A stretch of DNA of 64,000 bases from an uncultured Actinomycetota bacterium (GCA_963815825.1 CAWFII010000016.1:14932-78931), one strand, 5' to 3'; positions 21,941-28,495 are shown, numbered from the stretch's first letter. The notes: a model not told the origin generated them from the sequence alone. Program-made: numbers and translations.

Positions 21941-22741
21941 TCAGGCGCGTCGGAGCGAGGCGACCCGCCACCCGGTCGCTGCCACCGCCAGGACGAGGAC
22001 CCCGGTCGCACGCGCGCTGAGCCCGAGACCTGCGTGGCGGGGCCACTCGCCGAGCAGGGCGACGGCCGACTCGCCGAACGGTCCGGTCAGGACGTACGCC
22101 GCCCAGAAGGTCGCCACCGCGTTCGTCCCGAACCCGTAGTAGCCCACCGCGAGCAGCACGAGCATCGTGCCCAGCGCGATGACCGACCCCCCGTGGCCCG
22201 GCGGGAGGACAGACCCCACCAGCCCACCGAACGACCTCCCGAGCGCGAACGCGAGGAGCACCGCCAGCCAGTAGAAGGCCTCACGTCGACGGGTCACGAC
22301 CGTGTGGATCGACAGCGTGCGCTCGGTCCGGTACCAGCCCGTCAGGAGCCCTGCGAGACCGAGCGCGCAGAGAGCGCCGGCCGTCGCCGGGCCGATGTGG
22401 AGGGTCTCGACGAGGTTGTCCGCGACCAGTGAACCCACTGCGCTGACCACGACGACCGTGAGCCAGTAGACCGGCGCCACGTGACGTCGCAGCGAGATCT
22501 GCGCACCCAGCTGCGTCACCAGCAGGACGCCCATGATGGCGGTGGTCGGCACCAGTCCGAGGACCAGGTCTCGGGCGAGGAAGTGCGTGGCGGCGCCGCC
22601 GAGGGTGCTGCTGAGGATCTTCAACAACCAGAACACCACGGTGACCTCGGGTGCCTTGCTGGAGAGCAACCAGGTCCAGGGGCTCTCCCAGGACGCCCGT
22701 GCGCGCAGGGCGAAGTCGTTCGAGAAGGGACCGGACGTCAT
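21941..22741 (-). CDS. COG4705/DUF347-repeat membrane protein, diverged
   Basis: PEVTVVFWLLKI, ERTLSIHTVVTRRREAFYWLAVL, FWAAYVLT motifs. Confidence 0.8.
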   Translation of the reverse strand: MTSGPFSNDFALRARASWESPWTWLLSSKAPEVTVVFWLLKILSSTLGGAATHFLARDLVLGLVPTTAIMGVLLVTQLGAQISLRRHVAPVYWLTVVVVSAVGSLVADNLVETLHIGPATAGALCALGLAGLLTGWYRTERTLSIHTVVTRRREAFYWLAVLLAFALGRSFGGLVGSVLPPGHGGSVIALGTMLVLLAVGYYGFGTNAVATFWAAYVLTGPFGESAVALLGEWPRHAGLGLSARATGVLVLAVAATGWRVASLRRA

Positions 22742-22763
22742 GTCCGCGAGGATGCGTCGGTCT

Positions 22764-22780
22764 ACCTGAAGCTCACCTGA
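22764..22780 (-). promoter_or_regulatory. OmpR-type direct repeat TCAGGT-N5-TCAGGT upstream of the COG4705 gene
   Basis: Minus strand tcaggt-gagct-tcaggt, then 9 nt, CATCCT, 7 nt, ATG. Confidence 0.7.
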
Positions 22781-22788
22781 CCGCGCGG

Positions 22789-26447: not shown

Positions 26448-27214
26448 AGACCATCGTCGTCATCCCGACCTATGACGAGGCCGACAACATCTGTGCGGTC
26501 CTCGACGCCGTGCTCGTCGCGGCACCGACGACCGACGTGCTCGTCGTCGACGACAGCAGCCCCGACGGGACTGCTGCCCTGGTCCGGTCACATCCCCAGC
26601 ACCTCCGACGCGTCTTCCTCCTCAGCCGCAGCGACAAGGACGGTCTCGGGGCCGCCTACCGAGCCGGCATGACCTGGGCACTGGCGCGCGGGTACGACGC
26701 GGTGGCGCAGATGGACGCCGACCTGTCCCACCCACCGGAGCGGCTCCCCGTCCTCCTGGCGGCCCTCGAGGAGGCCGACCTCGCCGTGGGCTCGCGCTAC
26801 GTCCGCGGCGGAGCGGTCCAGGACTGGCCGTGGAGCCGACGCGCCATCTCCTGGGGCGGCAACCTCTACGTGCGCCTCGTGCTCGGCCTGCCGGTCCACG
26901 ACACGACCGCGGGTTTCAAGGCGTTCCGTCGCGACGCCCTGCTCCGGATCGGCGCACTGGAGTCGGAGTCGAACGGCTACAGCTTCCAGATCGAGAACAC
27001 CTGGCGCGCGAGCAGGCTGGGACTGCGGATCGTCGAGGTGCCGATCACCTTCACCGACCGCAACTCGGGCCAGTCGAAGATGTCGAGCTCGATCGTGCGC
27101 GAGGCGGTCCTCAGGGTGCTGGTGTGGCGGTGGCGGGAGCTCGCCGGCCGGGCCACGCCTCCCACAGCCACGCCGGCCGAACGTCTGACGGAGCGACATG
27201 ACGTCGCGGTCTGA
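26444..27214 (+). CDS. Polyprenol monophosphomannose synthase (GT2, Ppm1-like)
   Basis: VIPTYDEADNI, VVDDSSPDGT, GLGAAYRAG, QMDADLSH, GSRYV, DTTAGFKAFR, GYSFQIE. Confidence 0.9.
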   Translation: MKTIVVIPTYDEADNICAVLDAVLVAAPTTDVLVVDDSSPDGTAALVRSHPQHLRRVFLLSRSDKDGLGAAYRAGMTWALARGYDAVAQMDADLSHPPERLPVLLAALEEADLAVGSRYVRGGAVQDWPWSRRAISWGGNLYVRLVLGLPVHDTTAGFKAFRRDALLRIGALESESNGYSFQIENTWRASRLGLRIVEVPITFTDRNSGQSKMSSSIVREAVLRVLVWRWRELAGRATPPTATPAERLTERHDVAV

Positions 27215-27758
27215 GGCGCTCGTCCAGCGCCTCGCCTCCCCCGAGGTGCTCACCTTCCTGGCCGTCGGTGGGGTCGGGTACGTCGTCGACGTGGTCACCT
27301 TCAACGTGTTGCGTGGCACGGCCACGCTCGGCACGACGGACCCGTCGTACGCGCGCGTCCTGGCGGTCGCGGTGGCCATGGTGGTCACCTACCTGGGGAA
27401 CCGGATGTACACCTGGCGCGGCCAGGCCAGCGGGGACCGCCGCCGCGAGATCGGGCTGTTCATCCTCTTCAACCTCGTCGGGCTCGGCATCTCGGTCGTC
27501 ACCCTGGTGCTCTCCCACGACGTCCTGGGACTCACCAGCCGCCTTGCGGACAACCTCTCGGCCAACGTCGTGGGCCTGGCCCTCGGCACGCTCTTCAGAT
27601 ACTGGTCCTACCGGAGGTTCGTGTTCGCCACCCCCGTGAACGCCCAGGAGCAGCACCTCCGGGCGAGCCCCGCGTGGCTGCCGCTGGAGCACTACCGGGT
27701 CGAGGTCCGGGTCGGCGTCGAGACGACTCCGGTCCGACCCGAGGGGCGGCCGCGCTGA
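27198..27758 (+). CDS. GtrA family polyprenol-P-sugar flippase
   Basis: FLAVGGVGYVVD, YLGNRMYTW, ANVVGLALGTLFRYWSYRRFVF. Confidence 0.88.
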   Translation: MTSRSEALVQRLASPEVLTFLAVGGVGYVVDVVTFNVLRGTATLGTTDPSYARVLAVAVAMVVTYLGNRMYTWRGQASGDRRREIGLFILFNLVGLGISVVTLVLSHDVLGLTSRLADNLSANVVGLALGTLFRYWSYRRFVFATPVNAQEQHLRASPAWLPLEHYRVEVRVGVETTPVRPEGRPR

Positions 27759-28495
27759 CCGGGCGGTGGGTCGCGCCTGCTCGGTGGGCGGGCCTGGCGG
27801 TCGTGCTTCTCACGACGCTGGGTCTCGGCTACCTCGCGGAGTCGACCCGCGAGCACGACGGGCCGACCCGGCTGGACCCGGCACTGGCGCACGACGTGGT
27901 CGCCGACCGCACCCACACGCTGACCTTCCTCGCGCACCTGCTCACCGCGGTCGGCAGCGAGGTGGTCGTCGGCGGGCTCGCCCTCCTGCTGGCTGGCCTG
28001 CTGGCCTGGCGGCGACACTGGGAACAGGCCTTCACCGTCAGCGCTGCGATCGGCGGCAGTGCCTTCTTCACCGTGGCCCTCAAGCTCGCGGTCGCCCGGA
28101 CCCGGCCCGGCAGCGGGATCAGGCTGGGACCGGTGGACCACAGCTACTCGTTCCCCTCCGGGCACTCGTTGAACTCAGCGGTGCTGCTCGCGCTCCTCGT
28201 CTGGCTGCTCTGGCCAGGGGCAAGTGCCCTACGACGGGTGCTGCTGGCGCTGGCGGCGACCCTGCTCGCGCTCGCGATCGGCGCCAGCCGCGTCTACCTG
28301 GGCTACCACTGGGGTACCGACGTGCTCGCCTCGTGGCTGGTCGCGGCCGGATGGCTGTGCGTCGTGGCGCTGTTCGCCGGGCCTGTCTACCGGTGGGTCT
28401 CGGCTCAGGTGACGACGAGGGTCTGCTCGCGACCGGGTCCGACCCCGACGGCCCAGAACGGGGTGCCCGAGATCTCCTCGAGGGCCCGCACGTAG
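27674..28495 (+). CDS. PAP2 family phosphatase (undecaprenyl-pyrophosphate phosphatase-like); start uncertain (27674-27803)
   Basis: K-x6-RP (KLAVARTRP), [20 protein letters not shown]. Confidence 0.9.

Follow-up and report, generated by a model that had tools for sequence, protein, structure and literature searches.

A candidate OmpR-type two-component regulon with a TCAGGT direct-repeat operator before predicted envelope lipid-carrier genes, most of them probably leaderless, in an uncultured Actinomycetota bacterium

The DNA analysed here is a stretch of 64,000 nucleotides (nt) from an uncultured Actinomycetota bacterium (GCA_963815825.1, CAWFII010000016.1:14932-78931), referred to below as the window; positions are counted from its first letter. 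It makes up 64 kb of contig C16 in an assembly of 3.77 Mb, composed of 43 contigs with 70% G+C. At 21941-28495, a gene pair encoding a histidine kinase (HK) and a response regulator (RR) of the OmpR/PhoB family lies between a gene for a DUF347 membrane protein and an operon for a predicted GT-C glycosyltransferase, a GT2 glycosyltransferase, a GtrA protein and a PAP2 phosphatase. All of these gene names, proposed in a first-pass annotation made from the sequence, hold. A direct repeat with the consensus TCAGGT-N5-TCAGGT, here called the box, precedes both the DUF347 gene and the operon. The features of the locus are as follows.

21941-22741, minus strand: DUF347 (COG4705) membrane protein, 266 amino acids (aa); PF03988, E 3e-25
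22742-22780, minus strand: promoter 1, with box TCAGGT-GAGCT-TCAGGT at 22780-22764, -10 hexamer CATCCT at 22754-22749 and ATG at 22741
22789-24111, minus strand: HK, 440 aa; HAMP, HisKA and HATPase_c (Pfam)
24108-24770, minus strand: RR of the OmpR/PhoB family, 220 aa, in-frame ATG at 24770; Response_reg and Trans_reg_C (Pfam)
24771-24782, minus strand: promoter of the RR gene itself, -10 hexamer CACGAT at 24782-24777, 6 nt, ATG at 24770; predicted leaderless
24823-24863, plus strand: promoter 2, with box TCAGGT-GCCGG-TCAGGT at 24823-24839, -10 hexamer CATGGT at 24849-24854 and ATG at 24861
24861-26447, plus strand: ArnT-like predicted glycosyltransferase of GT-C fold, 528 aa, membrane protein
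26444-27214, plus strand: GT2 with a Ppm1/DPMS-like catalytic domain, 256 aa, start overlapping the upstream stop (ATGA); PF00535 Glycos_transf_2
27198-27758, plus strand: GtrA/DPMS_TM protein, 186 aa; PF04138, E 7.4e-23
27674-28495, plus strand: PAP2 lipid-phosphate phosphatase, start codon uncertain; Pfam PAP2, E 7e-21

Exact boxes are present at the two places named in the first-pass annotation, as TCAGGTGAGCTTCAGGT (minus strand, 22764-22780) and TCAGGTGCCGGTCAGGT (plus strand, 24823-24839), and the geometry described there (repeat, 9 nt, CATnnT, 6-7 nt, ATG) matches at both. In promoter 1 the box is followed by AGACCGACG (9 nt), CATCCT, CGCGGAC (7 nt) and the ATG at 22741, and in promoter 2 by TCTTCGCTG (9 nt), CATGGT, CGTTCC (6 nt) and the ATG at 24861. 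When one mismatch was allowed, these two exact boxes were the only matches in the window, against 0.20 expected, and 2 of 100 shuffles gave two. In relatives, too, the layout of promoter 1 immediately follows the stop codon of the HK gene. In front of the GT-C orthologues of many relatives the box is conserved, as is its spacing to the start codon, with varying spacer and flanks.

The scan of the whole genome that the first-pass annotation had suggested returned six exact boxes, compared to 0.63 expected. All six are followed by an ATG or GTG 20-22 nt past the box and by a -10-like hexamer 9 nt downstream. Boxes with one mismatch number ten genome-wide, which is about the chance number, and the start codon occurs at this distance in 1/10 of them. 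Exact boxes on contigs C6 and C22 represent one locus in two co-assembled strain variants, reducing the set to five independent exact sites; they precede DUF2231 membrane proteins. Another exact box stands before the gene for a membrane protein of 669 aa that contains a spermidine-synthase-like domain. Yet another precedes a predicted leaderless open reading frame (ORF) of 32 codons, whose stop overlaps the GTG start codon of a further GT2 gene, the second of Ppm1-like type:

C25:19852-19950 (L004:3853-3951): 32-codon upstream ORF, overlap GTGCTGA before the second GT2

The search was extended with a position weight matrix built exclusively from sites of other genomes, for which the reversed-sequence control reached a maximum of 16.4 bits. 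In this genome 14 sites score above 16.4 bits and 16 sites above 16 bits. New sites with the right geometry precede a second DUF347 gene, two DedA genes, UppP/BacA, GDPD and a GT87 (MptB-like) gene. As the matrix had been trained elsewhere, its recovery of DedA, UppP, GDPD and DUF347 shows that this genome and its relatives, taken separately, yield the same families. One of the two DedA sites is located in the window and scores 22.3 bits. The box inventory of the first-pass annotation, correct for the two exact copies, had overlooked this third and degenerate one.

37548-37645, plus strand: promoter 3, degenerate, with box TCAGCA-TGCAG-TCAGGT at 37548-37564 and -10 hexamer TAGCCT at 37574-37579
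37642-38316, plus strand: DedA-family (VTT domain) membrane protein, 224 aa; PF09335, E 2.6e-23

In promoter 3, the box is separated by 9 nt from the -10 hexamer, and this by 6 nt from a GTG at 37586. The GTG opens a predicted leaderless upstream ORF of 19 codons (37586-37645), whose stop codon TGA shares bases with the start codon ATG of the DedA gene (ATGA). DedA genes follow boxes directly in 8-13 relatives; there the DedA gene itself is predicted to be leaderless, compared to the upstream-ORF start here.

Taken together, the predicted regulon in this genome comprises about 9-16 promoters. It includes two DUF347 genes, the GT-C/GT2/GtrA/PAP2 operon, the second Ppm1-like GT2, two DedA genes, UppP/BacA, GDPD, the GT87 transferase, DUF2231 and the membrane spermidine-synthase-like protein. 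The UppP/BacA gene behind its degenerate box (C22:325138-325907, minus strand) matches a relative in two frames (residues 1-142 and 148-255), due either to a frameshift or to an assembly error. Boxes are also clustered at C22:229-234 kb, where they accompany DUF347, DedA and an unknown 154-aa protein and where one box (233244) has no gene behind it, and at C25:19.8-23 kb, with the second GT2, an esterase and GDPD. These two clusters look like satellite islands of the regulon.

To place the box in a comparative frame, relatives of the RR were collected by searching one genome per species, which gave 80 loci with an RR 55-87% identical to the one studied here (948 kb in all); boxes were sought within 6 kb, with one mismatch allowed. 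The loci originate from Marmoricola, Aeromicrobium, Nocardioides, Kineosporia, Spongisporangium, Cellulomonas, Sanguibacter, Luteimicrobium, Promicromonospora and Solirubrobacterales metagenome-assembled genomes. The RR/HK family, so far uncharacterised, is common in Nocardioidaceae and scattered in other Actinomycetota. At least one box is present in 70 of the 80 loci, and the total of 132 boxes compares with 0-1 for reversed or permuted hexamers. The first-pass annotation had tied the boxes to the adjacent RR/HK pair, and these numbers give that link comparative support. A chance origin of the boxes was rejected on the same counts, together with the six exact copies against 0.63 expected in the genome itself.

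The association was also followed within the genus, which for this soil actinobacterium is Marmoricola or a close relative according to the nearest named homologues. The 61 genus genomes together contain 97 exact boxes, compared with 6 occurrences of the reversed word, and the boxes are clustered around two-component loci. Of these boxes, 46 lie in the 11 genomes whose kinase has an orthologous sensor domain (at least 57% identity), and 45 in the other 49. A genome of another family shows the bare core of the arrangement, in the order box-DUF347, RR, HK, box-DUF347. The full composite pattern was found in 3 of 401 genomes in a scan of the phylum, with 0 in the control, in a sample with so few close relatives that the result is hardly informative on distribution.

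Of the 132 boxes, 116 are followed at fixed spacing by the A and T of a -10 element and 85 by a start codon 20-22 nt away. The logo derived from 115 distinct sites reads yRG-TCAGGT-N5-(T/G)CAGGT, 9 nt, nAnnnT, 6 nt, ATG/GTG, with a near-invariant box and a variable spacer. The -10 element has A at +28 in 98/115 sites and T at +32 in 107/115, while its first base is T in 30/115; neither an extended -10 nor a -35 element is discernible in this logo. The start codon is offset by 21 nt in 75 sites, by 22 nt in 28 and by 20 nt in 12, and the distance from the -10 T to ATG/GTG is 6-7 nt. If the start codon begins at +1, the box occupies roughly -38 to -22. In about one third of the relatives' boxes the -10 is present and there is no start codon at 20-22 nt; such boxes presumably drive leadered transcripts, including that of the RR gene in some lineages.

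In the studied lineage, a sense-oriented box is absent from the RR promoter. Its -10 hexamer is found in similar form (CACGAT, CACCAT, CAGGAT or CAGCAT) and with the same start spacing in 11 of 12 loci of close relatives, L066 being the one without it. A single TCAGGT at 24790 was considered as an autoregulatory half-site and rejected, because it is not kept in relatives. In the window as a whole, the lone hexamer TCAGGT occurs in 46 copies compared to 25 expected, and no shuffle reached 46. This excess lies mostly inside genes and is probably an effect of codon usage or composition unrelated to the operator. At promoter 1, the first half-site of the box and the HK stop codon form a perfect 8-bp hairpin, ACCTGACC-GCGC-GGTCAGGT at 22776-22795, within a 60-nt segment with a fold energy of -22.9 kcal/mol. 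It was rejected as a conserved terminator, being absent from relatives, and is probably lineage-specific.

The HK and RR genes overlap by 4 nt (24108-24111), which points to a single operon. The RR combines a receiver domain (PF00072, E 2.4e-25) and a winged-helix Trans_reg_C domain (PF00486, E 3.2e-16), and its nearest solved relatives are PhoP and PrrA of M. tuberculosis (E about 1e-33). The recognition helix SENT(I/V)DS(Y/F)(I/V)RR(L/I)R is kept across the aligned RR proteins of the 80 loci, and the next-best regulator in the genome is 38% identical to the RR. As read from the translation, two predicted transmembrane helices of the HK flank an outside domain of ~120 aa. Against NCBIfam equivalog models, every score of the HK is below the cut-off.

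The product of the first gene in the operon had no match in Pfam, in NCBIfam, or in sequence and profile searches of the PDB, and it was the fold search alone that resolved this 528-aa protein as GT-C. With its AlphaFold model (pLDDT 80.6) as a query, Foldseek placed ArnT at the top (5f15/5ezm; E 1e-7, template modelling score 0.60), followed by AglB, OST, DPY19, AftD, Emb and PMT; all of the top 31 hits are GT-C enzymes. Residues D57 and E58 are invariant in 17 orthologues and in the model are predicted to lie in the first outside loop. The best solved relative of the GT2 is the dolichol monophosphate mannose synthase of Pyrococcus (5mlz, E 3e-28), with ArnC next (1e-9). The protein is therefore best described as a predicted polyprenyl-phosphate hexose synthase, for which the label Ppm1 is reasonable but does not fix the sugar. 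GtrA could serve the GT2 as its membrane partner or else be a flippase. Because PF04138 is at the same time the membrane domain of mannose synthase, GT2 and GtrA may form a split synthase, with no flippase. PAP2, whose 3' end overlaps a convergent ORF, has weak NCBIfam matches to the undecaprenyl-diphosphatase SepP and to PgpB. The four identifications bear out the polyprenyl-phosphate glycosylation module proposed in the first-pass annotation.

The gene found most often behind a box in the 80 loci is DUF347 (27/132 sites), followed by the GT-C protein (13), DedA (8) and DUF2231 (7). A flippase-like LPG_synthase_TM protein and, in some sub-lineages, the RR gene itself account for 5 sites each, the Ppm1-like GT2 and PAP2 for 3 each, and GtrA for 1. 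Further genes behind boxes in relatives encode UppP/BacA, GDPD, PAP2_3 and an MGDG-synthase-like protein. On this comparison, DUF347 appears as the conserved core target, and not the glycosylation operon. The regulon outlined in the first-pass annotation thus stands with respect to its two promoters, but its real extent is larger and its centre lies elsewhere. The AlphaFold model of DUF347 (pLDDT 84.9) has eight long predicted helices (H35-265), tentatively read as transmembrane; no PDB fold matched it, and sequence and profile searches of the PDB were also blank.

Most of the targets that can be identified are predicted to make, use, flip or recycle polyprenyl-phosphate (Ppm1-like GT2, GtrA, GT-C, GT87, PAP2, UppP and DedA), while LPG_synthase_TM, PAP2_3, GDPD and MGDG synthase-like proteins would act on membrane lipids. 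We consider it likely that the RR/HK pair controls this regulon through a class II operator, activating mostly leaderless genes of the envelope lipid carrier. The operator would be the direct repeat yRG-TCAGGT-N5-KCAGGT, with an 11-bp period, placed 9 nt above a weak -10 element (nAnnnT), and at about -38 to -22 the box would stand in for the -35 element. A dimer of the phosphorylated RR is proposed to bind the box head-to-tail and to recruit the housekeeping RNA polymerase. Class II activation with such an arrangement of box and -10 is used by PhoB and PmrA. From this likeness (an 11-bp direct repeat, 9 nt to a weak -10, no -35) we infer activation by the phosphorylated RR. Since the gap of 6-7 nt that separates the -10 from the start codon leaves no room for a leader, most targets are predicted to be leaderless, with transcript starts that would coincide with the start codon or lie no more than a few bases away. 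Leaderless transcripts had already been proposed in the first-pass annotation; the fixed spacing of box, -10 and start codon has the corresponding geometry, and the transcript starts themselves are predictions from sequence. Two genes would depart from this pattern, in that a short upstream ORF, itself leaderless, comes first in the transcript and overlaps with its stop the start of the gene proper. As output we consider surface glycosylation or cell-surface remodelling most likely, combined with a replenished pool of free lipid carrier. As for the signal, carrier or envelope stress is one possible reading; the envelope stress, antibiotics and phage named in the first-pass annotation are guesses.

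Several observations weigh against this interpretation. The genus genome G075 carries an orthologous kinase yet has no exact box. Some high-scoring sites lack a start codon at 20-22 nt, indicating that not every target is leaderless. Without a sense box, the RR promoter of this lineage differs from those of many autoregulated systems. A box over the -35 region could equally serve a repressor. Finally, DUF347, DUF2231, the spermidine-synthase-like protein, the esterase and a secreted beta-propeller protein have no known link to polyprenyl-phosphate, so that the functional theme rests on part of the regulon.

One alternative keeps the regulon and its operator and replaces carrier-lipid or antibiotic stress with a response to metal cations, like that of PmrAB or Pbr. 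The HK would then sense Pb, Zn, Fe(III), Al or a similar ion, and DUF347 would be a cation exporter. PAP2, UppP, GDPD and surface glycosylation would lower metal binding or precipitate metal phosphate. PmrAB, which is the closest functional analogue and counts in favour of such a response, senses Fe(III) and Al(III). Moreover, the HK can be aligned over its full length with TIGR01386, a model of heavy-metal sensor kinases (E 1.5e-40), and the RR aligns with TIGR01387. In Frankia, UppP-DUF347 operons were reported to rise under lead stress, and DUF347 was proposed to be a metal transporter (PMC4531530). However, the model scores are well below the cut-offs (139.5 against 292.55 for TIGR01386, 142.9 against 279.2 for TIGR01387), and a conserved acidic/histidine metal-binding motif was not found in the sensor domain across 33 HK orthologues. 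No metal efflux pump, chaperone or oxidase stands behind a box in the 80 loci or at the matrix sites of this genome, and DedA, GT-C, GT2 and GtrA have no evident metal role. Identity with the heavy-metal systems CusRS, CzcRS and CopRS was rejected on these scores and on finding no metal neighbours or targets. We regard a metal response as possible, though rather unlikely.

Still less probable, in our assessment, is that the RR binds the boxes as a repressor, blocking RNA polymerase at -38 to -22 until dephosphorylation switches the genes on. The overlap of the box with the expected -35 region would suit such a role, as would the fact that actinobacterial promoters often work with the -10 alone. 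The -10 elements found here are, however, weak, as seen in the scarcity of T at the first base and the lack of an extended -10. The rigid, same-face distance of 9 nt between box and -10 fits the class II activators PhoB and PmrA, whereas a repressor would tolerate variable positions. That the boxes are read by another factor, either a different RR or an alternative sigma factor, with the closeness of the RR/HK pair incidental, is very improbable: at least 14 other OmpR-type regulators are encoded in this genome, but boxes occur in 70 of 80 loci of RR relatives across several orders, no further regulator gene was seen there, although a systematic search for one was not made, and the tandem hexamer with its 11-bp period and nAnnnT -10 is unlike a promoter of an extracytoplasmic function (ECF) sigma factor.

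A more far-reaching idea, offered as a speculation that we think has a rather small chance of being correct, is that the RR/HK family senses and regulates the pool of polyprenyl-phosphate carrier in Actinomycetota and is the first system dedicated to it, with DUF347, and perhaps DUF2231, as a so far unrecognised component of the carrier cycle. If so, DUF347 could join DedA/UptA and DUF368/PopT as a third family of proteins that translocate the carrier lipid. Alternatively, it could be a membrane partner that reports the carrier state to the HK, in the manner of MgrB-PhoQ and LiaF-LiaS. Regulation of the lipid carrier is poorly known in actinobacteria, which include antibiotic producers and relatives of mycobacteria. 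A description of this two-component regulon was not found in the literature. What the locus offers is an uncharacterised two-component family whose operator is precisely defined, whose promoters share a fixed architecture and whose targets form a coherent list. By placing DUF347, DUF2231 and the membrane spermidine-synthase-like protein beside UppP, PAP2, DedA, Ppm1-like and GT-C proteins, the regulon supplies functional hypotheses for the former. Its targets, predicted to be mostly leaderless and in two cases preceded by coupled upstream ORFs, would make a natural model for activator-dependent leaderless expression.

Two features of the assembly accompany these results. Contig C6 and C22:726-753 kb, as well as C5 and C17:52-85 kb, are syntenic copies at 80-100% identity; the assembly apparently combines two strain variants or contains large duplications. 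For this reason, apparent paralogues in these segments (DUF2231 and an MprAB-like locus) are not to be counted twice. In addition, a repeat of ~1.4 kb at ~8505-9900 of the window (C16:23436-24831) is present on at least six contigs at 78-94% identity (C6, C16, C17, C22, C30, C37 and C39) and is probably an insertion sequence.

We have also compared the system with characterised ones. MprAB of Mycobacterium and Corynebacterium is, like the pair described here, an actinobacterial system of OmpR type tied to the cell envelope, and the automatic annotation of the Joint Genome Institute (JGI) labels several RR homologues as MprA. Identity with MprAB was rejected, as DUF347 and not an HtrA/PepD protease follows the HK. 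A separate RR-HK-HtrA locus exists at C17:62649-65630 (variant at C5:9165-12170), with an RR 39% identical to the box-linked one. Its HtrA-like protease carries the motif GNSGGPL, in an arrangement typical of MprAB-PepD. The MprA motif of C. glutamicum is TKTTAAGAAM (PMC12113857). CutRS of Streptomyces recognizes TAWATAAA and targets htrA3 and htrB (PMC12802291); it was rejected because the box found here is TCAGGT-N5-KCAGGT and no htrA target is present.

With PhoB/PhoR the system shares the domain architecture of both proteins and a direct repeat of 11-bp period that replaces the -35 element ~10 bp above the -10. It differs in box sequence, and no pst, phoA, phoD or phosphate-uptake genes stand behind boxes in the 80 loci or at the matrix sites of this genome. 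Identity with PhoBR or the actinobacterial PhoPR was rejected, the PhoB model scoring 150.9 against a cut-off of 296.2.

The combination of GT2, a GtrA-type protein and GT-C is known from GtrABC, CsbB/GtcA/YfhO, Ppm1 with Pmt, and PpgS with Rv3779. The genes studied here show this combination too, as overlapping frames in one operon. In contrast to these three-component systems, PAP2 is predicted to be co-transcribed and control by a dedicated two-component system is proposed. The presence of UppP/BacA, PAP2 and DedA in the output resembles the protection of undecaprenyl phosphate in Firmicutes (sigma-M, BceRS and LiaRS acting on bcrC/uppP; UptA, a carrier flippase of DedA type). The regulators are unrelated, as they comprise an ECF sigma factor, a BceR-type regulator with an ABC transporter and a NarL-type regulator. 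DedA targets contain the VTT domain and may be flippases of the UptA type. The Frankia operons couple DUF347 to an undecaprenyl-diphosphate phosphatase and are reported to be stress-induced, which is a published hint in favour of the main reading as well; the study describes no regulator or operator (PMC4531530).

The closest parallel is PmrAB (BasSR) with arnBCADTEF in E. coli and Salmonella, likewise an OmpR-family system, with a PmrA box of the form hexamer-N5-hexamer at -35. Its output includes ArnT (GT-C), ArnC (a GT2 acting on undecaprenyl phosphate) and small flippase subunits, matched here by an ArnT-like GT-C and a GT2 with ArnC as its second-best solved relative. Identity with PmrAB was rejected on NCBIfam scores (PmrA 128.8 against a cut-off of 330, PmrB 86 against 314). 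Furthermore, the two boxes differ in sequence, the present host is a Gram-positive bacterium without lipid A, its GT2 is nearer to mannose synthase, the promoters are predicted to be leaderless, and the regulon adds DUF347, DedA, UppP and GDPD. We describe a new, well-defined two-component system of OmpR type with a candidate class II operator, whose value lies in a readable regulon and in the leads on DUF347 and DUF2231, and which by analogy would work like PmrAB-arn while standing outside that family.

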